A stretch of 61,146 nucleotides of DNA, filler included, from Dugesia japonica (lineage: Eukaryota), in the NCBI GenBank assembly GCA_001938525.1. It is 3 parts of 3 records of this genome, joined end to end, with 100 filler letters (N's around TTAATTAATTAA, not from the genome) between each part and the next. Parts side by side here need not be neighbours in the genome. Positions count along the whole stretch, not along the records: positions 1 to 23,508 come from MQRL01629553.1; 2 more parts are not named here. The stretch is one strand, 5' to 3'. The number at the start of each line of letters is the position of its first letter. The stretch's first letter is position 1. Positions 10,166 through 60,283 of this stretch are shown piece after piece. Below the pieces are notes generated by a model. It was not told the DNA's origin. It saw only the letters and a list, made by a program, of their open reading frames with translations, and made no database searches. Made by a program: the position numbers and the translations under genes.

Positions 10166-11029
10166 AGAAAAACAACAATTCTGATCTTTTGTTTTTAAAA
10201 CATTTTATTTTAAATAAAATTGTTTATTCAGTTATTTTCACAGCTCAGTGGTTAAAATTTTTAAATTTTTGTACAAAAAATATTTATACTCGAAGTACTT
10301 TATGTTTGAGCCTTGGTGACTGTGCTTCCAAACTAATGATTGCTCAGAACAAATGTAAAGTCGAAAATAAATTAATTTGATTCATATACAACTGCGAAAA
10401 AATATCAAGAAACCAAATCATGAACGAATACCGGAAAAATTTGTGAGTTCAAAATTGAATAATGCACTGTCAAAATTAAATTAATGAAATTTTGAAGAAG
10501 GGCGAATATAAGCATTGAGAAACAAAGGCACAAACGAATGTTGGTATAAAATTGAGACTTTAAACTTAAATAATGTAAAGGCGATCATAGAAAACAAGAG
10601 AAAAATGTAGAAATCAAGTCACGGGCGAAGATTGAAATGAAAATCGAGAGTCAAAATCAAATAATGAAAAGTCAAAAATAAATTAATGATATCCTGAGGG
10701 ACAAGAAAAGAAACAATATAAAAAAGCAAAAGATGTGAGTATATAAAATCAAATATCCGAACTGCGTCGATAAATTAGAATGACAAAAACCTTATTTTTG
10801 TTTTGTCGCCAAAGGAACTCAGTCATCAATTTGAATGCTTATATGCACCTCGTCATTTTTGTTTTATGATTATTTGGAATTTTGGTTCAACGTAAATTTT
10901 TTTATTTTATTAGTATTAAAATTTTATAACTCCCAATTTTGTTAATTAATTACAGTATTTGAATTCCGTAATTATTAATTCTATTTATATAACTGGTGTA
11001 CACTTTTCATGATTACAATTTTTATTATC

Positions 11030-11630
11030 ATACAAGTCATCTATAAATACACAACTATCAGTATTGACAAAAATACTTCTATTTTTTAATGATTCTAATG
11101 AATTATATAATCCTAATCTAGGAAGAGCAGTTGTGTATAAAGCTATATAAATATAAGTTGATTTATATGGCTTCTTCTATTCATATTTTAAGTTATATTT
11201 AATCATCCATGTTTCTTCATCTAATGTTATATGGTTTTATTCTATATAATAATTGTTGTATATTGTTTTACATGCATCATCATAATTAATAGTATATACG
11301 TTGTGATCAAAATCATCATTCATTTCAAAATATCCCCATAAACTATTTAAAAAATTTTAGTTACTTGTCTTAAGTCGACATTGAATTTGATTTTATCTAT
11401 ATCTAATTCATATGCAAAATTGTCTGTTACAAACTGAATCTTTGTATTACAATTGCTATCATTAGTAGCATTACTATTACAATGTTTGTCACAATCAGGT
11501 AGACAATTTCCATTATGCATTTACAATCTGATGCTTCTAATTTATACTTCATAAATATATTTACATAGTCTTTGAATAAATCTTTTACAGTTTTAGGGAA
11601 ATAGTATAATTCAAATATATGTGTTGCGGT
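11030..11630 (-). pseudogene. Protein-primed family B DNA polymerase fragment (Polinton/Maverick/adintovirus type)
   Basis: Minus-strand motifs in the correct order: IFELYYF..DLFKDYVNIFMKYKLEAS, FLNSLWGYF (KxxxNSLWGKF motif), YIALYTTALPRLGLYNSLESLKNRSIFVNTDSCVF (IAAFTTA.ARL.LY..L...YxDTDS motif). Frameshifts and stops present. Confidence 0.85.
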
Positions 11631-11814
11631 TTCATCTGAGTTGGATGTAGAAAAATGGTGGCTGGGGGAAAAGACAGCCCTCAGGTGACTCATTCAAGAA
11701 TTTGCCTAATGCTCCTTATTAGGTTTTTAATGTGAAGCGGTTGACTCCCAACGCTTATTCGGAGTACACACATGCACATCTTTTTATTCGGGTTCAATAT
11801 TTCCCCATTAGTTC

Positions 11815-13745
11815 CATTTATTAAATGTAAAACGAAGTTAACAATAACTTGTAAACAAAATATTTTGTTTTTCATTCAATTACATATAGTTTAACACCTC
11901 TGAGTTGAGCCACAAGGTGGGCTCGCCATTCGCAAAATTGAAGGTGGCTTCGTCGTCATCACTATTTCATCTAGTCCACGAATCCAGTTCCAATTGGGTT
12001 GACAAATCAGCGATGTATCTGTTTAACAAGTTAATTTTTTTTCCAGAATCTGCTTGGTACGTTCGGCTAAATCCCATGTTTCTTTCACGATGATGTCTAT
12101 CTTTTTGATCATCATATTTTGTTGGGTTAGGTGTTGCAAAAGCGCACACTCGTTTTGACTCTTAATTTGTCACTCGAGTAAAAGCTTTTGAATTAACCGG
12201 TAACAGCGGCAGAGACTATTTTGGAAGTGAATTCTAGGCACTATAAAGAAACAACTAATTAAGAATTAAACAAATATGATTGACGTAAAATTATCATAAG
12301 AAATGTTGTTACATGAACACAAACCAGTTAACTCAAATAAGAGATTTTATTTAGAACAAGACGAAATGAATAGGCACAGTTACGGGCGTGAAGTCTGTGT
12401 AGACTTATAAACCATTAAAGATTCTAAGGCATAAGTCTTCGTAGTTCTAAAATATCGGTGACCAGTTTATTTTCACGGTCATGGAGGGACCGGATAACAT
12501 CTGCGAACGATTCCAGTTGCTTTTTCCAGAGGTGCTCCTGCGAGTGTGAGGCCTCCGCTTCCAACCGGTAATTCTGACATTTATTCCTATAACGCTTGAC
12601 TTTAGCGTTGGCATTGGCCGTGTCGGATTCCCACTTTCGTTTTGCTAGCCAATACAATTACCAGGACATCTCTAAATATCATATATCGTCTCGTCTAAAT
12701 ATCATCTCGATGTCCTCGCTGGTTTCGAGTACTTTCTTAGTTGGCGGGACTGAACGGTTGATTGATGAATGCACTAGAATTTAACTATAATTTAATTTGA
12801 TTAGATAATTTAATAATAAGATAACAACAAAAATCAAGAGTAAACAAGGTCGGCGTATGATTTATGCAGACGACTAACTCAAAGGAAAACCAAATAAAAT
12901 TGTTGGAAGGCTCAATTTAAGATAAACATAATTTTTTAACTGAAAACATTTATTAAAAGAGAATAATTAAATGTAATTAATTTCCGAGGTTGTCAGACAA
13001 TTCAATGTTTTCCGTGTTATCAGCACTCCCAGGGTCTCGAACACTCCACAGCATGTTATAATTTAATCCTCGCAATCCTACAGGAGGAAGTGGTGGGGAT
13101 GTATTTTTGCTCTACTCGCGGCGATGATGTTGCGCACCTAATGTGTCGGTGGTGTACAATAGCTTAAAAAGTAATATGGCTGCGAACCGAACCGGTCCAT
13201 TCATAGAAAGCTTGCCGCTCAGTAGCGTCCCAATGACGTTCCTTATTTGCATCTCTAGCGGATAAGTTAAAATGCTCCTGCAGGACACCAGCATTTCGAT
13301 CGTACGGATTCACGTATCGTCTAAATATCATACGACCCGTGATTCTATCTTGGATTAATTCTCATTTGAATTCCACTAAAAAGAAAATGATAAATCAATT
13401 TATGATAATGTTAACGAAATTATATGCACAAGAATCGAGTTAAACACCATTATATCAGTTATACGGAATCTGGCTAATCAAATAATCAATCATATTAAAG
13501 TTACAACACAATATCATAGTCAAACATATTTTTATTTAGTAACAGAGAAACAAAAGGTGTCAACATCAATATAGAATTTCCAAGGAAGAGGATACAATTC
13601 CTTAAAGCATTGAAGGTCCGTCTCGTCCGGGTGTTCAATCTTCCCGTGAGACAATAAGTGGGTCAATAATTATTTTTATCGTGGTTTCCTACGCCCCTTG
13701 AAAATCTGGCGGATCGTTTTGTGCAATATGCTGATCATGACTCTA
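11815..13745 (-). pseudogene. Cluster of four decayed small ORF cassettes of unknown function
   Basis: Four GC-richer blocks (13742-13532, 13375-12977, 12773-12424, 12240-11880), each preceded by a pyrimidine-rich AG acceptor and followed by a stop and AATAAA. One or two internal stops or a frameshift each. Confidence 0.5.
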
Positions 13746-14619
13746 AAAGTAAATTAATAAAGCTAAGGAGATCATGTGAATCAACAGGGTATGGAACTAT
13801 CCCCTTGTCTATAAAATGATCAAGAGGATTTCCCCTAAAATGCCGTGGCTCGTGGTAAGAAGAAAAAATCATGATCCAAATGTATCATATAGTGGAAAAT
13901 TACACTTATATTACTACTCGTACTGGTATTGTTACCGCCTCAAGTTGTTAATAATGATAGTAATTGACAAGTTTATGAATTAATAATGAGTATATTACTA
14001 ACAATTTTGGTTACGGAACCCGTAATGTTAATCCGCATAATCTCACTTACGTCCCGAGATCTAAATAATTAAAATAGTTGTGATTTTAATAAAGAACACT
14101 CTGAGTCAAATAATGATGGGATTGCTAGTAAAAGTGTTACTATTACTAAAAGTAACAATAATGTCACTACCATAAACCATAAAAATAAAAAATAGCAGGG
14201 AGATTGATGGTAACATTCATTTTCGTGATATTAATAATAGTGATGCTAATGATAACGATAACTATAATATAATATAATACAATATAATAGTTATAATAGT
14301 AATCATATCAATGATACTCATAAAATAAAAATCCCAATAGTGTCAATATTGTTATTATGGATAATAAAGATGACCATAAAGGCAGTAACAATGATAATCA
14401 ATAACTTGCCTGTTAATTGAATTAATTTTATTGACTGGAGTTGAGATAATACTAACTATAGCAATGCTAAACTGCTTAACAATGCTGACTAGCATGTAGT
14501 ATGTTTTACCTTTACTCACGGATTACTAGGTGGAAGTAATATGATCCTAACTCATAAATAAGATTTATTTACTGTGCAGATTTTAACCTGGATAGTGGAA
14601 TCTTAACTGCTACATGAGT

Positions 14620-16838
14620 AATAAATTCTCAACCATCTAATGATACATTGAATGGCAGAAAAAGAAAAATAATTAGTCACTATCACGGCTCGATAAAACG
14701 ACTGATTTAGTGACACACACCGACGTCTGATAAGAGAATTTTGAACCGCATAGTGGAACAGATGTAACATTTCTAGCTGATTTAGCTGAAACAGTGATTT
14801 CCCCCTTGTTTTATAGTTTTTCAACAAAATCAATAAGTCAATAAAATTTTTCCGCTCAACTGCTCGTTGTTAAAAATTTACTCTTTGATTAATTTCAGTT
14901 TCACAGATCTGGTATTCTTCGAATTTTGAAATGTTTTAAGGTTTATTCTCCAAAATTTAATAAACAAAAGTCTTGTTTTGTGTTGACGTAAACTGTTATT
15001 CCACAGATAATAGATTTTTAGGGGTAATTTCGATTAAAATCAGGGAGGTTTTATATCTTTTGGTTTCACACCACGACTCGATTTGCATTGGTGTTCTATT
15101 TTTGTTTTCGTTTTAGCTTCTCCGATTGGCACCATTTCTAATTTTCTATAGGTTTTCATATATTCTATTGGTGCCTATTTTTAGGACACCTGGTGACTTT
15201 TGGTTCTTTATTCTTCGTTTATTTTCTGGCCCCTCACTGGCCTATTCTTCAAAACCTATTCCCGACTCTCTTGAAGATGGTATGGGTTTTACGTTGCAAA
15301 ATTCAATTGCCCCGTGATTTTAGCTTTCTAAATTTTCTTGTTATGATTCTCTGAGATCTTCCGGAGCGAAAATATCTCATAAAAACAGATTTTCACTCAA
15401 TTAGATTTCTTTTTTAGCATAGAAGTAATTAATTATTTAATATATTTCTCGAATCATTGCATCACTTATATTCCCCATATTTAAGAATGCAATTAATGTG
15501 TAATTGCCCCTTTTATTATAATACAATTTTATTAATTTGTTGTTAGTTCTCGATACTAATAATATATTTAATAATATATTTAGTATATTCACATTTTCCA
15601 GAAAAACGAGTTTAGATTATTTAATTTAAAAGTTGTTTAAATTCAAACAAGTCAAATAAATATTTAACCAATTTAAAATAATATGACAACTCCAGATTTC
15701 TATTTATTCTGGATAGATTTTTATAAGGTTTATTTTTAAGACGTTTTTTTTAAAATTGTGATCTAGAATGCAATGTATGATCCGACTACATAATAACTAA
15801 ACCTTTTGGTAAGGTAAGCTTTTATTAGTAGCTTCAAGAAAGTAAACAGTTGAAAAAGGGGTATCCCTAAAATTTGAATTTACCTTATATTTTTATTAAC
15901 CAACTTTGTAAAACTTTTTATAGTTAATAAAAGTTTATTACAAAACAAACGGGTTTTCTTAATTTGCTTTATCTTTATTTATTATATTATTATTTATAAT
16001 AAATAAAACAACGTTTTACCTACACGCCTATTAATTTATCTTTGGAGTCAGATAATTTCTTGATAGGTACCTATACCTACTAGGATCTAACAAAATGTAC
16101 AATTTTATGAGGTTGAGTTTCAATCTTCTCACTTCGATGAAATACAAAGATAGAGATAAGTTACAAGATAAGTTGATAAGTATAAAAAAGAAGAAAGATA
16201 AAATGACAGGAAAAGCGTATTGACAAGTTCTATTATGAAAAGAGTTTAAAGATAGGCTAATCACCAGCTTGGAAACAGTGGCCAAATGTAAGGTATGTTT
16301 GATTAGTAGGCAACCAAACGAGTGTGTATGCTCTCCAATTAGTTTATCTGGAGTTCATTAGGTCATTCAATGAGTTAAATATTAATTCCTTACTCAAAGA
16401 ATATTATAAAACCTAATGATCAAATCAACTTGTTATTTCAATATATTTTAGTTTTAAATATGGTTATATTTTTTATACTTAATTATTTAATTTCTTATTA
16501 CTAAGTTAATATTATTTTAGTATGTTAGTAGTGTTTGAATGAATTGGATTTTAGTTAATGAGTTTAGTTTTATATAATGATGTTTCACAGGAATATGTTC
16601 TTAGTTGATAACTATTATGTGTAATGTCTCAAATGGCATATTAAAATTGTTGATTCTGTTAGTAAATTTGTAAGTGGTATTAAGGCAAAACGAAGAATAG
16701 TTACAACCTTTTAATGATCTAATTAGATGTCAAGTAAGTTAGTCCGTATTAATTAAACATTGAACGTTTACTGAGATCTTGTTATTTGTTTTATTGTTAG
16801 TTTTATATTATTATTTTATATATGGGTTTCTCGTAACA
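14620..16838 (-). mobile_element. Probable 5' part of an LTR retrotransposon (LTR 16287-16838, PBS-like site, decayed ORF)
   Basis: On the minus strand TGTTACG...CCTTACA is followed by ttTGGCCACTG, similar to the TGGCGACCACTG site before the gag at about 21990. A decayed A-rich ORF starts near 15478. Confidence 0.4.
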
Positions 16839-17299: not shown

Positions 17300-18085
17300 A
17301 CTGTTGTTGTATCTTTGCGACTGAGATTATCGACAGCTAATTTTATAGGTTCTATTGCTCTGTGTAGTAGCTTAAGAGCAGAAAAATCAAATCTTCAATC
17401 ATGTTTAATGCTTGAAATTCAAATGATGCCTCACAAATCACTGCTTCCGTTTTTTATCAGTCGCTCAATCATCTTTGAAATTGAATTCCATTTCGTTTTA
17501 ATATCGAGATGCAGTTCTATCTCATGGCTTATTTGCTCTTTTACTTTTCCTAGAAACGCATTATTGCAAACCGTAGTTTTTTTGATAAAGCTAACAAGTT
17601 TAATTGACTAGTCTAAAAGATCGTGATTATAAATTTCTTGCTCTATTGCATCATTACTTAAAATTTCTGTATCCATTCCATCATCAAATGTGTCGATTTC
17701 ATCAATATTGTCAATTTCATTACGATTCATAACCTGTTCATCATCCTCATTCTCTTGAATTTTGCTTGTATATAATGTATCACATACTCCTAAATGCAAA
17801 GCATGATTTAAGTAAAATTTTCCGATTACATCAATATGTTGAATTTATATATTTTTGACAGCAGCACCATATTGCGTTGATTCAACAATATCTTTAGCTA
17901 AATTAATGCCAAATCCACCTAAATAATTTTACATTGCTTTAACCATATCAAGAGCAGAGTAATAATCAAGGATACGCACAAGACCAGTTTTTATTGTTGC
18001 TCTATCATCGCTGCTAGAAATATTAACGCCAAAAAATCGTCTTCCTCTTACAGTTGTACTACATACCATCTAAGCATAATCCATT
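17300..18085 (-). mobile_element. hAT transposase fragment (catalytic region), decayed
   Basis: RGRRFFGVNI..TGLVRI..FGINLAKDIVESTQYGAAV (TTDGA motif), NHALHLGVCDTLY (CxxH motif), LHLDIKTKWNSISKMIERL (TRWNS motif). Confidence 0.8.
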
Positions 18086-18087
18086 TA

Positions 18088-19201
18088 GTTTGAAAGTATT
18101 TCTTCTTGTTGACTGTAAGACGTGAGTTGTTCTTGATATCATCATCTATACCGGTAGTACTATTGAAATCAAAGTTGTAAGAGATTTCGGAATAAGTGGA
18201 TCAATAGTTAGGAAGTTGATGAAAAATAATTTGAAGAAAGGGCACACACTATATCGATAATTGGTTTAGTTTGATCTTCCTCATAAATATGGAACGAACG
18301 TTTGTAGAACCGTGAGAAAGAATCGGATTGATTACCCAGAGCTAAGTACTAGATTAAGAACAAATCAAATTGAACACAAAAATAGTGGACTATTGTTAGC
18401 CATTAAGTGGAAAGACAAAAGAGAAGTCTTTATTTTGTCATTTTTTCATACATCAGCAACCAGTCCATATGGAAAAGTTGTTCCAAACAAAAAACCAATA
18501 ATTAAACCTGTCTATATCAATGATTACACGAAACATATGAATGTAGTTGATAAAGTTGACACGCAGCTGTTTTTCTCTGAATGTATTTGAAAGTCAATAA
18601 AATGGTATAAGAAAGTTTTTTTTCACTTTCTTGATATATCACTTTTCAATTCTTATGTTATTTATTCAAAAAGTAAGTGTAGTTCACTATCTTTTCATGA
18701 TTATAAGCTCGAAGTTGTAAAACAAATCTTTGAAAAGTACAATGCAGTTAGAGATGTTCATGTGTTTTCTAGACCTTTGAATCAGCCAGATCCTAAAAGA
18801 ATTAATGCGAGACATTTTGCTGATAAGTAACCAGTTGAGAGTGGTCGAATTGCTAGACATTGTTGCATTGTATGTTCTGCTAGAGCTATTCAAAAATTAA
18901 CAACTTTGTCCAGAATGTGAAAATGGAATACTTTGTGTTTCACTGAGTGCTTTAAAATTTACCAATAAATCGAAAACTATGAAAGAATGTAACAATCAAC
19001 ACGAACGAACAATTATACATCCACATTGCGAAAAATTAACATTTATATTAGATTTTCAAAAGAATTTTATCTTAAGAATATGTAATTTTCCCAAATTCAG
19101 AATTCTGTGATCCTTATGAAAAAATTTTTTATTCTTCAAAACTTCGTTAAGTAAACTTAATCTATCATTTGAGGCCAAAAATTCAAAAATGCGCTCGCTG
19201 G
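18088..19201 (+). mobile_element. piggyBac transposon 3' half (PGBD4-like), decayed
   Basis: KVFLLVDCKT*VVLDIIIYTG, GHTLY.DNWF, TVRKNR, KWKDKREV, KPVYINDYTKHMNVVDKVD, KWYKKVFFHFLDISLFNSY, Cys-rich tail. Ends ...GCTGG followed by TTAA. Confidence 0.9.
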
Positions 19202-27227: not shown

Positions 27228-28330
27228 CAGCGAATCCAAAGATTCGATTCGGATTCGATTAGAAAAATTGTATTTGGATCCGATTCGAAATTTTATTGGA
27301 TTCGTTTCGAATCCGAATCTAAAATATACCCTTTTCATTGAAAAGTTTTCAAGTTAATAAAATTGAATTCATATTTTAATATTATCGTCTTTTATTGTTT
27401 GCAAATATCTTGTTGAATACAAATTAATGTCCAAATTATTATTTATACATAATAATAAAGCATATTTGTTTGAATTTATACTAAATTTAAATTTATTGAT
27501 ACTCCTGGCACTTTGATCTTCATCAACTTTTTTTGATCTCTAAAGAACTTTTTAAGATNTCACCAATTCATTCACACTTCACTAAATCAAAGGATGAGAA
27601 ATATTACCATTGTAAAAAATGCGACAAAAAGTATGTAGTAAATGATGGTGGAACTACTTCTCATCTATGGAAGCACATACGTGATTTTCACGCTGAAATT
27701 TACACCAAAAATCCACTATTAAGAATGATTCAGTCAAAACAAGTTAATCTAGCTTGGTCAATTTATTTAAAAATCCTTTATTAAATGAATCCAAACATAA
27801 ATTTGATAAAACTATTTTAGATTTCATAGTTATGGATGGTTGACCATTCGAAACAGTTGCTGGAATTGGATTTAAAAAATTATGCCGAACAGTTATATCA
27901 GAAGATTATACACCACCACACCCAACCNNNNNNNNNNNNNNNNNNNNNNNNNNNNNNNNNNNNNAGAAATTATTATTTACTGAGGAAATCAAATCTCAAC
28001 TTGAATCTACAAAGTATCATGTAACTTTTGACCATTGGCTTGCATCTAATTATTCTAATTTTCTTNNNNNNNNNNNNNNNNNNNNNNNNNNNNNNNNNNN
28101 NNNNNNNNNNNNNNNNNNNNNNNNNNNNNNNNNNNNNNNNNNNNNNNNNNNNNNNNNNNNNNNNNNNNNNNNNNNNNNNNNNNNNNNNNNNNNNNNNNNN
28201 NNNNNNNNNNNNNNNNNNNNNNNNNNNNNNNNNNNNNNAATACGATGCCATGTACTGCTAGATTAATGGGGATTTAATGACATGGAGGTTGCGCGCACAA
28301 ATTGCAACTCTGTATCAAAGCCTCGTTTGT
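27228..28330 (+). mobile_element. hAT (Ac-like) element 5' part with BED zinc finger
   Basis: Subterminal GATTCG/CGAATC repeats at about 27230-27320; SPIHSHF..HCKKC..GTTSHLWKHIRDFH; then FIVMDG*PFETVAGIGFKKL and VTFDHW (first catalytic D). Confidence 0.82.
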
Positions 28331-28454: not shown

Positions 28455-29388
28455 AAAAGTTTGGGTGCTACCATTTAACTGATTTCATGGGCTAAATTCA
28501 TTTTTCGTAAAGAATAGTAAAGTTTATTAAATTAAAAACTTTTTCATCGTATTTTGTTTATGCTAACATTTGTTATGGCTTCGATATTAGTGTGATCCGT
28601 ATGGTATCTTTATATTGTCTTGTCATAGCTATCAAAGCTACATACTTACTACAATTGATTTATTATACCAAGAACATATCTTTTTCGATCTCTTGTATCC
28701 GGCAGTGGTCCACACACATCTATAAATAATAGTTCAAACATTTTGGCTGACTGTCTTTCTTGTTTCTTCCATCGATTTTGTTGTTAACACTTTAGCTGTA
28801 TGGCATGTTATACAACTTCGGACAACCTCTTGTAATTGGCTCCACAAAATGTTTCGACATGAAACATTGTGCACATGAATCGCACTGACTCCTTGCCAAC
28901 ATATTTGCATTTGTATGCAGTGATACTTTTTTATATTCTAATTTTATATTTAAAATGTGATCGGCTTCTTGGTATTTAGCATAAAAGTGATGGCTTTATG
29001 GTCTGTTCTGAGAATAACTCTTTTCCCATATAAGTAATGTTTGAAATGAATACAAAAGTAGTAAATTGCGAGCAATTCTTTCCGCGTAGTACAATATCCA
29101 TTCTCATGACTCGTCATTGCGTGTGACCCATATGCAATTACCATTTCTTGCCCATTGTTGTACCTTTGGTATAGTACTGCACCAATCCTATCGAAACTTG
29201 CATTTGTGTCTAAAATAAATCCTCTATTTATATCTGGAAAACATAATATTACAGAAATCATTAGTGCTTCTTTCATTCCATTAAAAACTTCTTCTAATTC
29301 GTCCGTACATTCAATTTTCTTGTTACTCGGTCCACTTCACAGTTGTTCCAGCAATCTAGCTTTTTTCGAATAATCTTTAATAAACTTG
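28455..29388 (-). mobile_element. Ty3/gypsy pol fragment (RT connection, RNase H, partial integrase)
   Basis: KFIKDYSKKAR; FILDTNASFDRIGAVLYQ..IAYGS..YCTTRKELLAI..HYLYGK..RTDHKA; downstream GPLP-like and IHTD integrase pieces. Domain order RT-RH-IN. Confidence 0.92.
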
Positions 29389-31922
29389 AGTAGATAGATA
29401 GTGGCACACGGGCACAATTTGACAATGAGCCAAAATTCAGGCACAATTATTTTTAAGCAGTTATCGAGTCCCCCTCTCCCTTCCCCCCGTGGGCTCGGAA
29501 ACACATTACGCTTAAGCTGCGTTTTTTTAACCATGACTTTTGTGATCGATTTTTTTTTCTTAGATTTTTGGGATCAAAAATTTTTTGATCGGATNAAATT
29601 ATTTTTTAATCTCATTAGTTTTTTTTATCCTGAAGGTGTGTGTNTATTTTTAAATTTTAAATTTTCTTTGTGTTTGGGTTGTTAAGGTGCTTTTTAAAAA
29701 GTAGGTGAAGTTGTGTTTGTGTGTTTGGTTGTGTGTGTGTGTGTGGAAAAGACTGAAAAAACGATTAGGAGTAGCTGGAGATCTTGGGGATAATTTTTTT
29801 TGAATTTTGAAGATTTATTTCTTGTCAGACGAAAATTTGGTCTATATATTGTCTAAAAGACTTATGACTTTGGATGGATGGTTTTAACCACAAGGGTAGT
29901 GGCACACGCCACAAAATATGAGTTATCGTGGGTGGTTTTTGTTTTGGTTGTAGTTTTTATGTTGTTGATGGAATTTGTTGTATGATGGCTTGTTGGAGAG
30001 GTAATGTGATGTTGAAGATGTTGGTTGTCGAATGTGCTTTGATTTTTTATTTTAAGGACTTCTTTCTGATTGGTTTATTTTGTAAGTAGTAAAGATGTGT
30101 TAAAAAAAATTTTCGTGAGGTGGAGGTTGGTATGTATGGAAAGAGAATTAATTATCGGATTTTTTAAGATTTATTTGAAATTTTTCTGTCAGGTTGTTAT
30201 GACGTCATAAATTTTTAAAATAATTAATTTAGTAAAAAATGCTGTATATTGCATAATTTGATGAATTTAATGAAAGTAATATCATTTTTGAGTTTTTGAT
30301 TAAAATTTGGTTATTTTTTCGGTATGTTGATCGGGGAAGTTTTGTTTTGTAAGATTTTCGACTGGGGAGGAGGGGAGTCTTGATATTTTTGAAAACTTTT
30401 TTGGCGGGAAATTTAAAATTTTTTTTTTGGCGGGAAATTTAATAAAAAAATCTTTTTGGCGGGAAATTCAAAAAACTATTATTCTGGCGGGAAATTCAAA
30501 AAAATTATTTTGGCATGAAATTTAAAAAAAATTATTTTGGCGGGAAATTCAAAAAAAAATATTTTGGCGGGAAATTTAAAAAAAATTATTTTGGCGGGAA
30601 ATTCAAAAAAAAATATTTTGGTGGGAAATTCAAAAAAATTATTTTCGACGGATATTGAAAAAAGGAAATTTTTCATTGCAATGGGGGAAAATATTTTATT
30701 ACAATTAAATTAAATTAAATTAAATTACTTTTTTTATGTAAGAGATGGAGTAGTCTTGATATTTTGCATAAGATGGGCAATCTTGATAGTTTTTAAGATA
30801 TTTGTGCATGGTATGGGCAGTCTTGATATTTTTAAGATATTATTACACATTTTTTAAGATTTTAATACAAGATATCAGAGTCTTGGTATTTTGCATGGTA
30901 TGAGCAGTCTTGAAATTTTGAATAGGGAGCCTCTATATTTAGCATGGGATGGGACAGTCTAAAATTCATAGGCATGTAATTTTCAGTTTATGTGTGTTGC
31001 ATCTAAGCTGTATACCTTTTGCATTTAAAATATCAATAAAAATTCCTAGACATGTGATTTTTAATGTATGTGTGTTGCATCTGAGTTGTAACTGAGTTAC
31101 ATTTAAAAAAATCAAAATGGTGGCTATATTGAGTTTTAAAGATTCTCAGACTTGTGATTTTCATTGTAAATGTGTTGCAGCTGTAATGCTTCTGAGTTGC
31201 ATTTATGAAAATATATCTATCAAAAAACTTCAAAGAGGAAAGTCTGTGTGATTTTATATAATAAAATATAACTTTTATTAAAATATTCAAATAAAAAAGT
31301 TCAAAGAGAGGAGTCTTTGTGATATTTACATGTTAAAATATATCTATCAAAAAACCTCAACAAGGGAAGTATTTGAGATATTTACATGTTAAAATGTATC
31401 TATCAAAAATAATCAAANAGNNNANTNTNNNTNANATANTANATANNAAATATAACTTTTTTTNAAATATTCAAATAAAAAACCTCAAAGAGAGGAGTCA
31501 TTGTGATATTTAAATGATAAAAATATAACTATTAAAAATCATCATAGAGGGGAGTCTTTGTGATATATACATGAATAGATATTCAAATTAAAACTTTTCA
31601 TTACAAAATGATAAAAACATAGAACTTTATTCAAAAACATATTACTAGTGCTAATTTTCTATAAAAAATATCATTAGTGATGCAATTTTTTAATAAAAAA
31701 TCTCATTACCGTTGCAATTTTAAATAAAATATATCATTACCGATGTAATTTTTAATAGAAAATCTCTTTAGTTTTACTATTTCTAATAAAAAATCTCATT
31801 AGTGATGTAATTTTCCATTAAAAAAACATATTGACAATGAAGATTTCTTAAAATAAAACATATTGGTGATACAATTTGTCCATAAAAATACATATTACTA
31901 GTGAGAATTTTCTATAAAAAAA
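29389..31922. repeat. Non-coding element arm containing successive different minisatellites
   Basis: Abruptly replaces gypsy pol; TAGTGGCACACG twice; arrays with units of about 27 bp (30398-30660), 28 bp (30745-30960), 55-60 bp (31205-31580) and 32 bp (31630-31922). Confidence 0.7.
30398..30660 (+). repeat. 27-29 bp minisatellite built on TTTGGCGGGAAATT(C/T)AAA
   Basis: About ten copies, seven with intact GGCGGGAAA. Confidence 0.92.
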
Positions 31923-37795: not shown

Positions 37796-38011
37796 GAAGT
37801 AGTAATTGATGAATAGTGTAAAATTATAACTATAAGTTTACAGTGATAATAAATAGATTGATAAAAAAATACTATGCATATAAAATTGAATTATATCTAT
37901 TAAAAACGTGGTGAAATTCGTGTTTTACTTTTATCGTTTTCTTCAAGACTTTTTTCTAACAAAAAACCTATAAAACGTCTAATCCAACGTTCTTTATTAT
38001 AAATAAATCTG

Positions 38012-38078
<67 letters not shown>

Positions 38079-38215
38079 NNNNNNNNNNNNNNNNNNNNNN
38101 NNNNNNNNNNNNNNNNNNNNNNNNNNNNNNNNNNNNNNNNNNNNNNNNNNNNNNNNNNNNNNNNNNNNNNNNNNNNNNNNNNNNNNNNNNNNNNNNNNNN
38201 NNNNNNNNNNNNNNN

Positions 38216-38258
<43 letters not shown>
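37729..38258. repeat. (AAT)n microsatellites flanking the last dynein exon
   Basis: Seen at 37729-37795 and 38014-38258 (with gap). Others at 40153-40341, 41108-41200 and 57503-57553; (TA)n at 60286-60314. Confidence 0.95.
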
Positions 38259-38263
<5 letters not shown>

Positions 38264-40276
38264 TCAATAAAAATTACATGATAAGTCATTCGTGTTTCTT
38301 CAACAGATGATTTTGTTGTCATAGATGATGAAGTATAATAATTAAATTGGAAGGGTTCCAAATTTAAAATTGGTAAGTCAATAAAACTTGGTAGTCGTTC
38401 AGATACAAACAAAGTTTTAGCTTTCAATTTATTTTTTGATATAAACCAAATTCGTTTATTGTTTTGAGATATATATCGATCATCAAACGACTGTAAATTC
38501 TTAACATTAAATCGAGGTTGAATTAAACAACTCAAAAATGATTCTATTGTACTAATAGATTTGTATGTCAGACTCAAATTAATATGCATTGAACTTTCGA
38601 ATTCAGAGCAAGTGAGTTTCTTGATAGTATCATCATTAAACCATGTTTCTTTGGTCAATGAAACGAAATTTGTTAAGAAATCTAAAATAAAAGATATTTG
38701 AAATAAAGTTATGCTAAGCTGTTTAATATTATATATACGACGAAACTCTTTTCTCTAAAGAGAAACATAGAACGTAAGGAGTTTTACAGAAGTTTTCATA
38801 AATCGATTTCTACCAACAGAACAGGAACCACAGTCTACACACAGTCCCACATAAGGGTGGGTACAGGTCTCNTTGTTCCAATAATTAACTCTAAGCTAAT
38901 AAAATGATACTATAGCAATTTTTCCATATGACCTGATCGTCAAGTCTATTGTTTCCTCATTGCAGATTTGACAAAATCTCATTATTAAAAAAAATACTGC
39001 GCCTGATTCTGTTCTTGAAGCTTTTTTTGAATGGATTGAGATTGCGTCTTTTCTAATTACAATTTACGATATCGGATAGCTAGCCAAATCATAGGGTTCT
39101 AATTTACCAAATACCAGAAAATTCAACGTGGAACAATGTATAGTACCCCTTTGTCATGACTAGGCAGATGTTCTTTTCTTCAACAAGTTGTTACTAGGGA
39201 TGAAAAGTGCATTCTATTCAGCAAACTACATAAAAAGAAACAATGGTTATCACCAAGACAAACAGACTGTTATCCAAAAATGATTTTACCGTCAATATGT
39301 TGGGGATTTCAAAGGAATCATTCATTATGAGATTCTGAAACCTAATCAATCCGTTAATAATGGTTAATATTGTACTCAATTTGATCGATTATTTGCGGTT
39401 TTGATTAAAAAGCGCCCAAGATTGACAAATAGAAATGGTGTACTTATTATGCTATGACGTATATTAATTTAATTAAAATTATTGTTAATCGTTATTTTAT
39501 TAAATCAAATTAAATAGTGACCAAATTGCTGAAAAAGTTATGATTTACATCAATACAAAAAGTGCAATATTGAGATATTAAAAAGTAATTGCAATAAATG
39601 AATTTTCTTAAAGATATTTACAATTAAAAAATTAATTATCCAAATCTAATAAAAAGTAATAATATAAATTTAATGCCCATAAATTTAATTGTTTAATTAA
39701 ATATAGTTATGAAAGATTATTATATCTGTAAGAATTTATGAAGCATCATATTTGTAATAAAACTATTAAATATATTTATTTAACTGTGTATAACTTTTCT
39801 TAGTTTCTTTTTAGAATTTTAGACGAAATACATTTTCCTCAAAACATTTAGTCGCTAATCAGAATTTTAGATCACTGTAGATAAGAATAGTATAAACAGA
39901 ACCACGGAAATCTTTAGAATAAAAAATATGTTCACTAATTTCCAAAGAAAAAATTCAGTTTTATTGAATCTATGAAGTAAACCCATTAAGTTTCATTTTG
40001 CATAGTAACATTTTAAAACAGGAAAAAGTCGTTAAGACTTTATTGACCAAAGGTTTCAGTACTGGTCATTGAAAATTACTTAAATTATATGTTTTTAGAG
40101 TTTTTGATAAAGAAAATTTTGTTAAAACCACTAAATTTTATTAAAATCTAAATATTATTATTATTATTATTNNNNNNNNNNNNNNNNNNNNNNNNNNNNN
40201 NNNNNNNNNNNNNNNNNNNNNNNNNNNNNNNNNNNNNNNNNNNNNNNNNNNNNNNNNNNNNNNNNNNNNNNNNNNN

Positions 40277-40343
<67 letters not shown>

Positions 40344-41135
40344 AATAGTAATAATGTTAACAATAAAACAAACATGATTGAAATTCTGGGAATGTGATAT
40401 TCAAATTATTAATAGTGATATCGTTTGAATTGACATTTTCAAACACGATTTGACAAAGAATTTTAATCATTTTGATATCGGTTTTATCGAAATATATTTT
40501 GATTAAAGCTAACTGAAGTAAAATTAATGAAACTAAAATGAAAAATCCAAAATTCAAAAAATACTTCAATAAGTTTAATTACAAATTGCTCTATGCTGGA
40601 CGGAGAGTTGAAATCTGTTTCCATATCGCAAGAATCCAAAAGAAGTAATTGATCCTTTATAAGACCAACGGGAATTTGTTTCCAGGTTGACATACCGCGA
40701 CAACCAAGTAATTGCCTTAACATCAATATTGAATTAATTAAATTAAGTCGCCAAATAATAGCCCCAGTGAGTTTAGAATTTTTTCCGATAATTTTAGTCA
40801 TTAAATCGTTTTGACTATGAAATGCAGACAACGAATAATAAAAAACTGAAGAAAAGGTTTTAAAAATATATTTTCATATTTATAGAATAAATTAAATTCA
40901 ATACTTTCTCCAATGACAAAATTATTAATATTAACATCTTGAGTTTTCATCGAGATTACTATCTTCTTTAAATTCTTTTCGGAAAGAATCAAAATAGTGT
41001 CAAGTAATTCCGAATTTAAATATTTGACAATTTTGTCTGTTTCTTTACTAACTAGCCACAAAAGTTTGGGAGACGGGTTTGTGTTTGAAACTGCAATAAA
41101 TGATTTATAATAATAATAATAATAAGAACAGTAAT

Positions 41136-41200
<65 letters not shown>

Positions 41201-44200
41201 NNNNNNNNNNNNNNNNNNNNNNNNNNNNNNNNNNNNNNNNNNNNNNNNNNNNNNNNNNNNNNNNNNNNNNNNNNNNNNNNNNNNNNNNNNNNNNNNNNNN
41301 NNNNNNNNNNNNNNNNNNNNNNNNNNNNNNNNNNNNNNNNNNNNNNNNNNNNNNNNNNNNNNNNNNNNNNNNNNNAATAAATACATAAACATAAATATTT
41401 AGGAGCTTCATATCAATTAAACAATTGCACAGACCGTCGAGGGTTTACGTACAGTATCTACTTTCTGTTACAAGTAACATTCTTATCAACGAACAGTTCG
41501 TTTTTGTATCACGAAAGAACTATTAACAGGTCTTCCAAACAACAATTTATTTGTATTTCTTTGAATTCGTGATGAATCCATTTGTCAAGCTTTCATGATT
41601 TCCAAATTTCTCGGAAATGGTTTGGAAACGGTCATGGATGATATTCTTATATCAAAAAAATGTTCTCAAACAGTTATACGCGGATCAGTTTCGACTAACT
41701 CCTTCAATTGACCATTGTCAATTGCAGGGCTCTGTTTACAGCATTCATCATCTTCGAGACCTTGATTTCTATTATCGAATTTCTGAATCGCGTTCAGCAA
41801 TGCGACAAATAAACTCTCTGCAATTTATAAAGATGTGTTGTGTCTACTAAGCACCCAGACTAGTAATGATATAATATTTTATAATAAGTTTTTTTGAATA
41901 TATAATGATGAGTTATTAGAATATTTTTATTGAATTATTCCCTATTTGTTATCCTGAACGTCATTTCAAAGGTTTAAACGAAAAATTCAACACCTTGTAA
42001 AATAATGCAGTGTAATCAAATCTATCATTTTGAGAAGTGTTATGAATGAGACCATTTTAAGTCTATTAATGGCAACTACCATTATCTGACATTTAATTAG
42101 TCACTTTATACATGGGCGGGAACCAGTGTTTGATGATAAAGAATGTGAGAGTCAATCTGAAATTTCTGATAAAGAAATTTAATATGCCAGAATTTTGATG
42201 GAAGAGCAATGAGTAATTACAAACAAGATTTCAGAGATCTTAAATATGAGTAAAGAAAGAGGTAGAACCATAATGAGTAATTATAGAATTCTAAAATTTG
42301 CATCCAAACGCTTTTCTTGTTTTATCACTAACTAAAAGCACCAAATCAGATTAAAATGCTGTAAATGTTTTTTGCATTTTTGATGAGAATAAAGATAATT
42401 TGGTGAAGAATATCATAAGTGATGATGAAACACCACTGTTATTGTAGCTTTCTATATCCAAATAAGAATCAGATGAATGTAAATTTACAGCTAAATCTGG
42501 TTCCAGAAAGATCCAATTTGTTAAATGCCATCGTAAATCTATGATGCTGAGCATTTTCTGGGATTACCTGGGTTTTTTTTGACTATTTTTATGGTAAAGA
42601 TATTTGGATAAATATTATTTTTGATCTTATTTAGGAGTTCAAGATGTGCTCAACAAAAATGGAGTAGCTATTACAAGATATGGTATTTTTCTTTAAAAAA
42701 AAGAAATTATGTTGCTTAATTACCTTACATATAGTTCGCATAACATACCAAGTGGTTTTCATCTATTTANNNNNNNNNNNNNNNNNNNNNNNNNNNNNNN
42801 NNNNNNNNNNNNNNNNNNNNNNNNNNNNNNNNNNNNNNNNNNNNNNNNNNNNNNNNNNNNNNNNNNAAAAATGAGAAGTCTTATGTTGAAAAATAGTATT
42901 TATATTGTATTAGTATTTCTATGTCGTAGTATGATGATCATATTATTTTGATTTAAAACTTAGTCCGAGTACTTATTGGACTATTCCCGAGATTTAATTT
43001 AATTTAATTTTCATAGAAAATAGGTATTTTTATTATCAATCAAGTCTTTATAGACGAATTAATGTTGAAATTTGCCAAAATAGTGGACTGAACAACCAAT
43101 TTTTTAACATGTACTCTACACGACAATTTTGGATCCTAAGCTAGCGTAGAGTTCTTTAGTTTTATTTTTACAGAAGCGACTGTTAATTTTCATAAAACCA
43201 GTTAAATTAGGAATGAAAATCAATTAATCAAAATAAAAACTAAGAGCCACAATATTTATTAGCTTACAGAAATTAAATTTATGGAAGAATATTTTCACTT
43301 TTTGTGTTTTTAAAATGTGGTTTTTTGACCAAAGTTCTAATTTTCGCATGAAAAAATAATAAAGATTTAATTGAAAACAAGATTCAATATATTTAAAATT
43401 TATATAATTCGATATATTTAATAAAAATTCACACATACACACATGCTTATAAAACGAATTTACCCTGTTATTAATAAAACTTATTAGGTGTTAATATAAG
43501 TTGTGTCCGTATTTTCTAAATAGTATGGATATAATTAAAAAAAAACAACTAGTAACCAATTAGTCAATAATATATTCTCCGTCACGATTTAAAACTTTTT
43601 GCTAGCGTTCTACACGTTTTTCGATGTCTCTTCGTAAAAATGCAATCGGTTTTCAATCAAAGAATTCGTCCAATAATGTCCTCAATTCGACTTTAGTATT
43701 GAAGGAAACGCCGCGCAATTTGTTCAAAAGCAACCTGAAAATATGGAAATCCGACAGCGCAAGGTTTGGAGAATATGGAAGATGCAACAGGACCTCAAAA
43801 GCAAGAGGTTGGATGATATTTTCTTGATATTAGCGATATAAGGGCGAGAATTATCGTGTTGCAGAAGAACACCATATTGCGATTCTGTCCAATTTTTGTT
43901 GAATTGCCGTGTTAAGTCACTGCATTTGCAGAAATTATAGTTCGGCGTTGACTGCTGGTTGCTTTCAAGTATCTCGTAATAAATGACGCTTTGCCAATGC
44001 CACAAGACGCACATCATCGTCTTTTTTTGCTCTGTGTGTTGCTTGTTCACCATGGTTCACCAATTTTTTCCGTTGCTTCGTATTAGCATAAAGACACCAT
44101 TTTTCATCACCTATAATAATACGGTAAAGAAACCTTTTCTTGCAACTTGCGTAGTTTGATGACGCGCGCGCCAACCAGAAGAAATTGCCGCACATTGATA

Positions 44201-47200
44201 TTTCTTACTTTCACTTAAAATATGTGAGATCCAAGCATCAAATCTCTGAACTTTCCCCACCGACTGAAGATGACATTATACAGTAGTTTAACAGAGATTT
44301 TCATAATTAAACTTGTTTCAATGGTCCTTATTGAATTACATTGGTTGCTCCAAACTTCCTTTTCCTTCTGGTTGGAATTACCGTTTTTGAAATGGCAAAA
44401 CCATTGACGAGCTTTCCTTTTATTTATTACATCTTTACTATACACTGCGCAAATATCGTGAGCTGTATGAGTACTTTTATTCCCTTCATTAAACGCAAAC
44501 AGGAGAATGTATCAAAGGTGATATCTTATTCTACTTGAAATTCAATTTCGAAGACCTATAATTAAAATAATGGATGTTCAAATTACGTATAATCTTTATT
44601 GATCTGATCTTTATATTATTATTAATTGTATTGATTATAAAAATTTGAATATAATAAAATTTGCATGTATTTTTAAAGTTGAATGTTAACACCTAATGTA
44701 AACATTTTTAGTGTGGTTCTTCAAAAATATAAATAGTTAAATAATTTATTATAACTAAATGAAATCTTACTTAAATTTTTCAGAAATTGTTTAATAATTT
44801 TCAGCGTGCGAATAATATTCTGTTCAGTGAAACTGACAACAATCCAGTCAGATTTTCTAGTATCGTTCTCAAGAATTGAATACAATTGATCATAAGATAT
44901 TGTACTGCAGTTTACAAATGATGCGGAAATTGACTGATTCTGGTGGAAATATAATATTTTTAAATTTAAAATTGTTGCAAATGAATATTTAATTTTTAAT
45001 AGACCAAAAATGTCCAAATTAAGCTCTGTGAAATTTTATTTTTATAAATAATTTATAAAAACGGTTACCTCAAATTAATGTTTGCAACAGCTTCCATAAA
45101 ACTTATAAACATTTATTTTTTACCAAAAAAAATTGAATTTAAAATTACAGTTAATACGAGAATAATTGTTGGACTTAACAATTGATAGTATTTGAGATTT
45201 CATTAAATTAAAAGCTTCGATCGAAATATTGTTTTTTTCTAGATATTTTATTTTATTAGTTCTTGGTAATATTTCGAATTTTCGATTTTGTCTTCGTCAG
45301 GAATTGACTTATTTAAAAAGTCAAATTGTTCTGTATAAATTTTAAATTGTTGTAATTTCTATTATTAATTAATTGTTATATTTTAATTATTTTAATTAAA
45401 TAATTAAAATAATTAAATAATATCATTACATAAAAATTTGCTAAAAACCAGTAAAATTTTCTTATTTATAAAATAAAAATCATTAAAAAAACCTTTGCTA
45501 ATTGACCTATAGCAATCAATGGATCTTCGTTTTCAAAACTCTCAACAGATAAATGATCTGGTGAAGGAACAATATTTCTTGACATTAAAATACATTTCGT
45601 ATTGGGAAATCTCTCAATAATACTTTGAAAATCAATAGATTTATTGTTTTTCATGATAAAATCTAAAGAAATTTTATCCATCATTATTTTGCAACGATCG
45701 GGTCTGAAAATTCTCAAAAGAATTAATTTAGTAAATTTATTTGTATTTATTTTAATTAAAGTGTCATTATCTGAGCTATTAGATAAATCATCTAACGGTG
45801 TAACATCAGCGTTTTCGATTTCATCTATCTCATACCTAAATGTTAACCTAGTTAATATAACGCATTTCCATTAAGAATTTCACCAAGATTTCCACTTTTC
45901 ACTATTCTCTGCAACTTTGACGCATAATTCTGTAAGAGGTCCAGGTAGAATCGAAACCGCCAAGATTTCATCCCATGTATTACTCGTTATCCAATTGGGT
46001 ACATTAATAAAACAATCAAAATCACTTAATGTAAGTTTCATTTCAGGCTTTAAAGATCCTAACAACAAACCTTAAAAAAATACTAATGATTAAATTTAAT
46101 TCACCATGTATAAAAAATTCCAATTCCATAGCAGATGGTGCATTTATTGGATCTTCAGATAACCACAGATAATAGATAAATCGATATTCCAAAAATTCTT
46201 GATGTGAAAGACATCTGAAAAATAAAAAATTATAGTAGTGAAAAATACTCAAGAAAATACAAAAAAAATAAGTAAAAAAAATTAAAAAATATGTAATGAT
46301 ATCATAATAGAGTATTAGAATCCGCGTATGTATACTACATGCGTCCGAGCATTTTTGCTTCACTTAACCGCCTGATCAACTAAATTGTAGCGGAATTTGT
46401 CTCATGTAAACGAAATTCTCATCAAAAATGTCTAGTAAAATATTTTCCACTAGAAGTGGGTACTGAAGAAAAAACCGTAATTATATATAAAATGGAGAAT
46501 TCATAAAGTGCACAAAATCATTTCAACTATATAACTCTATAAATTAAATTACAATTTCTTTTGTGAAATTAAAAAAACCAATGGTAAAACAACCTAGTCT
46601 AAAATATCAATGTTTGTCAACCATCTATTGTGAATGACAATGAAAGATTGACTTGAACAGCAATCTACTTTATTCAAGAACTAACAAATGGAAAAGGGTT
46701 GTCAATAAAGTTTATATTTCTAAACAAATATTACTACTTAATTAATTTCAATAAAAATACAAAAATGCCATAGAAAGTTTCTTACAATTGCAGGCGATAA
46801 AGAACAGACGATTCAAACATCATCACGAGATCTTTGATATTTTCTTCAGTTAATAATTTAAAGGTTTTATCTAAATCAGAATCGCATTTATCGATGTTTT
46901 CGATTTGATTTGAAATATTTTGTATTTGTTTCAATTTCTCTGGCAATTCCATCTGATCTTGTTGAAGAAGTCTTGATAAATTGTCGCGGTGTTTTGATTT
47001 TAATTGTGGTTTCCATGGTCTTGGACGAATAACTCCTCTTCTTTGCATGTAAAATTCAAAACTTTTCAATTTAAGTTGATTTTTAGATGATCTTATTCCA
47101 GTGATTTCTTGAGCTAAAAATCTTTTTTCTTCACTATCAATAGAATTCAACAATTGCTCAACAAGATATTTGTCATCTAAGTATAACGTTAAAATATCTG

Positions 47201-59540: not shown

Positions 59541-60283
59541 CTAAATAATGAAAAATTAACAATACTTTTAATAAAATATGCTATATCTTTTGATCGAATT
59601 ATTCTTTGTAGTTATATTACTGTAAACTATATTATATATTGAGAGGTGCTAATTCTTTGGTATTTCTTTAGAGATTTCGAATTTTAATTTCTTTCACTAA
59701 TCTCTAGATTTTAAGAAACGAATGTTTTCAAATATAGAAGTTATATGATGGAACTTAGCACTTTTTGAACTGAAACAACTGATTATAGAGTCTATAAACA
59801 TTTTTAGTTCATAAAACTTGAAAATTTCTTATGTTTTTACATAATAAAGCACTAATAATATTTTCAAAAATACGTGTTTCAAAATTAATTATAATAGAGA
59901 ATTTCAAAATATTTTAACACGAGACTTCAAAATAATTTACCAATAATTACACATTATATTAATTTTTAAATATTATCAAATATATATTCAAGAAAGTGGC
60001 TAATGTACGCTATAACTAAATTATTTCTTCATTTACTAATTAATTCTTTTCTTTTTAGCCAGAATCTCAAATAAGTCTTATGACAATCTAAATAATCCAG
60101 CATAGAAAAAGGAAATGAGTTTCTAGATCAGCCAATATAAAAAAATAAATACAATAAAGTGAAACTTCTGTACGTCTCAACCATTTTTGAGATTTCAAAA
60201 ACAATCTAGATGTTTTTAGCATAAAGTAAATATATTCTAGCTGCTTTATTTTTTTCGGATAGTAAATTAGAAGCACCGGTTTT

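Follow-up and report, generated by a model that had tools for sequence, protein, structure and literature searches.

Open reading frames (ORFs) within long terminal repeats (LTRs) are known from retroviruses, where MMTV sag and HIV nef are single ORFs in U3, upstream of the LTR promoter and with their own ATG. In adenovirus units, one leader serves several acceptors and poly(A) sites, and we know of no accessory genes of foamy viruses that lie in U5. Among Gypsy elements, the env of the springer subclade of insect endogenous retroviruses is spliced to an AU dinucleotide (bioRxiv 10.1101/2023.08.03.551782), and the MDG1 group has small accessory ORFs, sORF1 and sORF2, which are located upstream of gag or, in some cases, downstream of pol; poly(A) use is alternative, and sORF2 encodes a membrane protein (bioRxiv 10.1101/2025.03.14.642691). 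In planarians, the Burro/GYPSM1 elements, which have thousands of copies, long LTRs, and an internal region of ~22 kb, possess the order gag-CCHC-SUMO-like-BCL2-env-PR-RT-RH-IN, a BIR ORF, and MATH, dUTPase-like, and ankyrin domains, and the part of that account on which we drew gives no genes inside the LTR (PMC6431247).

The locus compared with these systems lies in a window of 61,146 nucleotides, that is, the whole stretch of DNA analysed, from Dugesia japonica (GenBank assembly GCA_001938525.1). Comparison with its copies identifies the unit in this window as a solo LTR, now decayed, of an env-bearing giant Gypsy element of the Burro type (table 1). In contrast to that account of the Burro elements, four genes are found inside this LTR. 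As in MMTV and HIV, the ORFs lie within the LTR; however, there are four or five of them and they are located downstream of the TATA box, so that a solo LTR contains the whole unit. A splice-completed start codon in a Gypsy element would be shared with springer env, but the latter is one gene of the type AU|G outside the LTR, while here the putative joint is A|UG and would serve up to three small genes from one donor in the LTR. Small accessory ORFs before gag and alternative poly(A) use are likewise features of the MDG1 group, whereas the ORFs described here lie within the LTR with their own acceptors, and, unlike the membrane protein sORF2, their alignments show no apparent hydrophobic stretch.

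The explanation that we consider probable is an LTR-borne unit of four genes, every one of which has an acceptor and a poly(A) signal to itself; the unit would be served by the LTR promoter and by one ATG-poor, A-ending leader giving A + TG starts. The transcript would begin at the LTR promoter with this leader, the shared leader would be spliced alternatively onto the acceptor of each cassette, its A and the TG of the exon would together form the start codon of cassettes 2, 3, and 4 (cassette 1 has its own ATG), and each message would end at its own poly(A) signal. An initial annotation had tentatively read 11815..13745 as an adenovirus-style unit with alternative splicing and polyadenylation, which might be an accessory module of a virus-like element, preserved in a decayed copy. 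Comparison of the copies argues for such a unit and bears out the decay, the carrier being the LTR of a Burro-type Gypsy retroelement; the unit itself is real, but its extent was drawn too small, for it spans about 15447 to 11622.

Table 1. Features of the LTR copy and of the adjoining PolB fragment (positions in the window)
Feature	Position	Strand	Remark
Solo LTR remnant, Burro-type giant Gypsy	11622..15447	-	Copies match from 15447 down to 11622, then end
Promoter-like block: CCAAT boxes and TATAAAA (15055-15049)	15049..15240	-	Arrangement common to 28 distinct copies
Remnant of ATG-poor leader	14790..15027	-	Likeness to L055 ends at 14790
Cassette 1: acceptor, own ATG at 13738, ~60-aa basic-helix + ETDLxCF protein, broken, AATAAA at 13536	13531..13742	-	
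Cassette 2: AG|TG start, ~133 codons, broken, AATAAA at 12954	12949..13375	-	
Cassette 3: AG|TG start, ~120 codons, predicted coiled coil and C-terminal LC8-type motif, broken, AATAAA at 12351	12346..12773	-	
Private 36-nt insertion with two short copies of cassette-2 sequence (second MIFRR)	12668..12705 (ends approximate)	-	
KSTQT codons, LC8-type motif of cassette 3, out of frame here	12392..12406	-	
Cassette 4: AG|TG start, 120-130 codons, broken, AATAAA at 11822	11817..12240	-	
Conserved LTR 3' block, end ..AACA	11622..11806	-	In 5' LTR copies the primer-binding site comes next
Decayed protein-primed PolB fragment, separate repeat	10980..11621	-	Outside the unit

A search of the same genome with the unit returned 2,639 candidates, 40 of which were scored, and the other copies were 68-89% alike. 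They cease matching at 11622, where the terminus ends ..CCCCAACA and is followed by unrelated, often TAA-rich DNA; an 18-mer of this LTR 3' end had 2,133 exact matches in the genome, while the reversed control had 0. The opposite terminus opens TGTTGGGG.., the termini are TG...CA with short inverted ends, and the flanks are unrelated between copies. Whole LTRs measured 4,347 nt (L038), 4,103 nt (L125), or, in others, more than 5 kb. A primer-binding site of 18 nt, which we take to be that of tRNA-Pro, follows the LTR end after one spacer at 57 loci; it was present behind only 2 of 29 unselected LTR ends, so most copies are solo or 3' LTRs. The complement of this site was seen once among 25 loci, as a tRNA-like 3' half (L267), and ARAGORN found no tRNA in the window and no whole tRNA gene in the 25 loci. 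With regard to target-site duplications, the window copy is without a 5' end and the sole whole solo LTR (L038) lies inside an ATT microsatellite; with regard to a polypurine tract, the G-run pattern before the 5' terminus gave 0 matches, and one junction was purine-rich but atypical. Cassette number and order differ between LTR copies: cassette 2 is duplicated in some subfamilies (five genes; L124, L130, and L134 compared with L066, L125, and the window), and L066 is without cassette 3 and most of cassette 4. LTR copies often adjoin each other, head to tail or tail to tail, or sit in TAA/ATT microsatellite (L036, L014, L071, L074, L087), and there is a sister family with the same primer-binding site and a different LTR end (L260, L265, L270, L271, L274, L275, L277, L279, L282).

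The link between this repeat and a gag-env-pol element was found on other contigs. Contig C614725 joins the LTR end to the primer site and gag, and C609115 (22.2 kb in all) runs PBS-gag-2xCCHC-SUMO-like-Bcl2-Env-PR-RT-RH-IN-BIR-3' LTR start, with PR-RT-RH-IN in the Burro order; the same repeat therefore flanks both sides of gag-pol, with its 3' end on C614725 and its 5' end on C609115. Both whole LTRs never occur on a single contig, and the total, more than 30 kb as set for Burro elements (whose internal region reaches up to 25 kb), is a sum across contigs of the 22.2 kb internal region and two LTRs of 4.1 to more than 5 kb each. Pfam matches were strong for the mononegavirus-like env between gag and protease (PF24664, E 4e-25 and 1e-53), the BIR domain (PF00653, E 9e-14), and the CCHC knuckles after gag (PF00098, E 1e-7, two stretches), whereas gag (PF03732, Retrotrans_gag, E 0.002) fell below the cut-off, as did the SUMO-like (PF11976, E 0.0025) and BCL2 (PF00452, E 0.005) domains, both in the expected order. 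A comparison of the gag fragment with the longer proteins of the protein database gave no match. In 15 frames of C609115, Pfam revealed neither the MATH, dUTPase-like, and ankyrin domains of Burro elements nor an uninterrupted ORF of ~5,000 aa, but the copies are broken; the two elements are likened by description, not by sequence.

The initial annotation had also placed the unit next to a Polinton-type polymerase. The adjacent fragment is real (its relatives match PF03175), but it merely abuts the end of the repeat. This contact would suit an accessory module of a Polinton/adintovirus-like element tied to PolB, as would 1 of 11 other PolB copies, which has an LTR end ~380 nt off (L250), and one of six gag-bearing contigs (C606696), which bears a different PolB fragment. 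However, all 11 PolB copies fetched other than that of the window (of 40 scored) continue across the LTR junction point, no LTR-bearing locus except L250 has this PolB piece, and there the LTR faces the opposite way. Moreover, a primer-binding site and gag are attached to the repeat, which has its own LTR termini and unrelated flanks rather than Polinton terminal inverted repeats with capsid, ATPase, and integrase genes. A functional tie to the polymerase thus did not survive the linkage check: judged from these copies, the link to PolB is incidental and the position of the window LTR beside it is a chance insertion, and we give next to no credence to a Polinton module. The gag-bearing contig C606696 (L189:1-2055) has an inverted env segment and the different PolB further on, in nested, rearranged repeats.

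Other repeats were observed in the window. A Gypsy RNase H fragment at 28950-29400 (-) is 37% like Burro-type pol and belongs to a separate element. Judging by eye, we take 18270-18827 (+) and 48313-48669 (-) to be piggyBac-like, and 17300-17850 (-), 27844-28266 (+), and 49446-49844 (-) to be hAT-like transposase fragments. Long stop-free frames at 37900-47200 (-) and 58079-59611 (-) resemble host-gene exons, and those near 58-59 kb presumably, again by eye, resemble the dynein heavy chain stalk region.

Within the unit, four same-strand modules of pyrimidine tract-AG and AATAAA, three of them with TG starts, had been reported, and all were confirmed on the minus strand. The first bases of the exons are AGTC-ATG at 13742, where the ATG does lie 4 nt behind the acceptor, TG GAA TTC at 13375, TG CAT TCA at 12773, and TG CCT AGA at 12240. 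Of the long frames said to follow, none is open over its length in the window (in-frame stops at 13678/13672; 13364 and 13166; 12681 and 12660; and 12172; plus frame shifts), but open versions exist in other copies. Two further suggestions were not upheld. The word MIFRR was thought to be shared by two products, and ATGATATTTAGACGA is located at 13331 and 12705; the MIFRR of cassette 3, however, belongs to the 36-nt insertion, found in 3 of 39 rows, all from the window's own contig. Likewise, TTTGAGTTA is located at 12883 and 12337, and a micro-leader TTTGA|GTTA had been proposed for the spacers, but TGAGTTA occurs in the spacers of only 3 of 30 and 1 of 29 copies, window included. The private insertion twice repeats sequence from 630 nt upstream, and we take it to resemble a templated repair insertion.

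The window copy is dead, since its donor end is lost and all four frames are broken. The first ~270 nt, including the 5' terminus, are missing (no 5' terminus motif was found in the segment), as is the end of the leader, where L055, L023, and other copies retain a conserved candidate donor, A|GT; the GTTGCAG anchor that precedes it there was looked for in the window segment and not found. A donor-like GT at 14881 was dropped as a candidate, for it is not kept in close copies.

The coding capacity was investigated in the other copies, by the dN/dS comparison that the initial annotation had proposed. Calculated pairwise between natural copies, with pairs that are not independent, dN/dS was 0.05-0.20 for the proposed cassette frames in diverged pairs with unsaturated dS, against 0.9-3.1 for the other sense (+1/+2) frames; cassette 1 gave 0.05-0.12 and cassette 2 gave 0.09-0.20. 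Close pairs of the better-kept subfamilies gave 0.09-0.20, and the few close pairs of window-type sets gave 0.46 and 0.71, as expected from decay after insertion. The mirrored antisense frame had values of 0.13-0.36 in the diverged and better-kept sets. On this comparison of copies, the cassette frames are under purifying selection.

The start codons of these frames were then compared among copies, given the earlier suggestion that a leader ending in A completes each ATG. In 68 distinct contexts of the first codon of cassette 2, a genomic ATG was present in 52, AG|TG at the same codon in 15, and neither in 1, and this DNA comparison supports such a leader; the copies with a genomic ATG keep an AG, mostly 1-11 nt upstream. 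AG|TG was retained in 35 of 45 copies of cassette 3 and 42 of 45 copies of cassette 4, with a background of 26 of 376 sites (6.9%) for TG after a pyrimidine-tract AG in the window's other DNA, although cassette copies share descent and these counts are not independent. The codons before the first internal Met are also constrained (pN/pS 0.14/0.63 and 0.20/0.76). Cassettes 2, 3, and 4 therefore likely gain their ATG, as far as the conserved AG|TG can tell, by splicing of an A-ending leader to TG. Translation might instead start without any splice-built codon, at the genomic GTG (A-GTG) or at internal Mets, the RNA being unspliced or differently spliced; the genomic triplet at the start position is indeed GTG, and many cassette-3 copies have an internal Met, near codon 24. 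Yet this GTG overlaps the pyrimidine tract and YAG, with Y alternating between C and T as in acceptors, the genomic-ATG copies keep their nearby AG, and cassette 4 is mostly without Met (none at all in 7 of 11 long open copies), so that we regard such starts as very unlikely. Flatworms trans-splice, and the flatworm spliced leader ends in AUG. If the acceptors took this leader, however, its AUG end would read a frame that is not under selection, and a cis promoter and leader lie upstream of the cassettes; if the four blocks were instead exons of one ordinary gene, it would be odd that each has its own stop and poly(A) signal and that cassette number and order vary. Either possibility appears highly improbable.

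Upstream of the cassettes, a CCAAT/TATA block (28 copies) is followed by a variable leader, and we infer that this block is used as the promoter. A conserved GTTGCAG-type word lies near the end of the leader, and 14-60 nt behind it comes the final A, next to a donor-like GT; this candidate donor was identified from sequence alone. By the first rule, A was found at -1 of the candidate donor in 27 of 31 rows (background 34%), and the four misses were two spurious anchors and two with a later A|GT. By a later rule, which was set after inspection of the leaders and excludes two T-ending first-rule matches, A was at -1 in all 22 leaders (19 clusters), one donor (L036) being probably wrong. A was also frequent at -2 (24 of 31), and at -1 G predominates among the element's remaining donor-like sites. 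The leaders contained 18 ATG in 7,236 nt, 8 of which stem from one doubtful row, versus 111.5 expected and 108 CAT, and an in-frame stop preceded any in-frame ATG in 21 of 22. With leaders so poor in ATG, the spliced message would have its first AUG at the joint itself.

The position of a poly(A) signal relative to the donor bears on where the cassettes lie. In 17 of 22 leaders, an AATAAA lay no more than 100 nt beyond the donor (38-85 nt; shuffle mean 4.1, maximum 11), and this signal may mark the R/U5 border, in which case R would be short and U5, with the cassettes in it, 3.5-4 kb long. This placement of the border is weakened by the next two 100-nt windows, which also contain AATAAA in 10 of 22 and 10 of 22 leaders. 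An alternative is a second transcription start near the conserved last 190 nt, which would put the cassettes in U3. The foamy virus LTR likewise has its major splice donor upstream of the poly(A) signal, and U1 bound to that donor suppresses the 5' poly(A) site; that layout was established by experiment, whereas ours is read from DNA (PMC3694450).

Three raw RNA runs gave 40, 236, and 71 reads on copy L134; nearly all of them matched only in part, most fell on simple-sequence or terminal stretches, and few reached the cassettes. A GT-AG joint was sought on L134 in these runs and in one contig set, with next to no coverage, and none was found. At L134 likeness, the LTR family is nearly silent in the RNA libraries examined. 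This fits the silencing of planarian LTR elements by piRNA (PMC8532177).

At L124:5360-5730 and 10 other loci, an exon running from acceptor to donor is conserved in the stretch that separates the primer site from gag, and the gag message is thus probably multiply spliced. This exon has purine-rich tandem repeats and contains ATGs and a G|GT donor. These ATGs and this donor, the phase-1 acceptors, which suit any upstream exon, and the absence of a junction read in the three RNA runs would also be compatible with cassettes that are LTR-borne but serve as phase-1 terminal exons behind an upstream coding exon, xTG being an ordinary codon; the upstream exon would be either a short one with an ATG or an internal ORF joined by splicing to the 3' LTR. 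However, 52 of 68 cassette-2 copies have a genomic Met at this codon, ATG is scarce in the LTR leaders, 21 of 22 of which have an in-frame stop first, and the length of the internal leader exon modulo 3 varies (6, 2, and 3 of 11 loci), unlike that of a coding exon. We consider phase-1 terminal exons unlikely, and keep the splice-built ATG as the preferred reading.

The open copies encode ~60, 110-137, ~120, and 120-130 residues for cassettes 1-4, respectively, and an accessory role in regulating the element is likely for these products. In cassette 1, ETDLxCFxE is reminiscent of LxCxE, a motif that binds Rb, but is one residue longer. A model of cassette 2 is a beta-hairpin/helix/beta-hairpin (pLDDT 66), with no fold match at E 0.001 in the PDB or viral libraries. 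Cassette 4, with a basic N-terminus, a predicted coiled coil, and an acidic-aromatic tail, looks in its sequence like a basic region, zipper, and acidic tail. Pfam gave nothing above the cut-off for 14 frames (12 from related loci, 2 from the window), the cassette-4 alignment found no homologue among 5,064 candidates of a protein database, PDB sequence profiles gave only E >0.8 for cassettes 3 and 1, and the best scores of Atlas comparisons, 0.79 and 0.80, were at chance level. For cassettes 2 and 4, these searches yielded no family, homologue, or fold.

Cassette 3 ends with an LC8-type motif (D/E-K-x-T/V-Q-T; DKxTQT) in 23 of 26 tails, window included. In these 23, the motif agrees with the published LC8 anchor rules, namely TQT-type with an H-bonding residue at -4 and a positive one at -3, although many anchors do not bind (PMC6607443). 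When the L161 tail was modelled with LC8 of the same genome, the score was 0.82, compared with 0.22 for the best of 3 controls; the runs agreed in 89% of contacts, partner pLDDT was at least 67, and the interface comprised residues 107-115. Among solved pairs, 51 of 78 reached the score mark, and among mismatched pairs 2 of 108 did so (39 of 65 and 2 of 126 for eukaryotes); because LC8-TQT complexes are textbook, the pass shows likeness only. Cassette 3 is thus predicted by the model to bind the host hub protein LC8.

The Burro-type element and a splice-built start for one gypsy env are known already. In the literature searched, we found neither an account of ORFs inside Burro LTRs nor one of several selected genes arrayed in an LTR and served by a single donor; Repbase and the supplement of Grohme 2018, which may mention such ORFs, lay outside this search. 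LTRs are usually treated as non-coding and solo LTRs as inert promoters; this invertebrate Gypsy LTR contains small genes in an array under selection. Burro-type elements thereby have an accessory programme like that of complex retroviruses, which annotation based on ATG-started ORFs misses. For a wider hypothesis, the chances seem to us about even: the LTR would be a complete multi-gene unit with one promoter and an AUG-less leader, the last A of which several start codons would share as their first letter; a U5 of 3.5-4 kb would hold the four or five accessory genes, only correct splicing would license translation, and thousands of solo LTRs would each have been born able to make virus-like regulators, one of which recruits LC8. 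If the splice-built starts are true, they would be an unusual way for a single donor to gate several genes, and proteins made from solo LTRs could be involved in the phenotypes seen when PIWI knockdown de-silences planarian transposons (PMC8532177).
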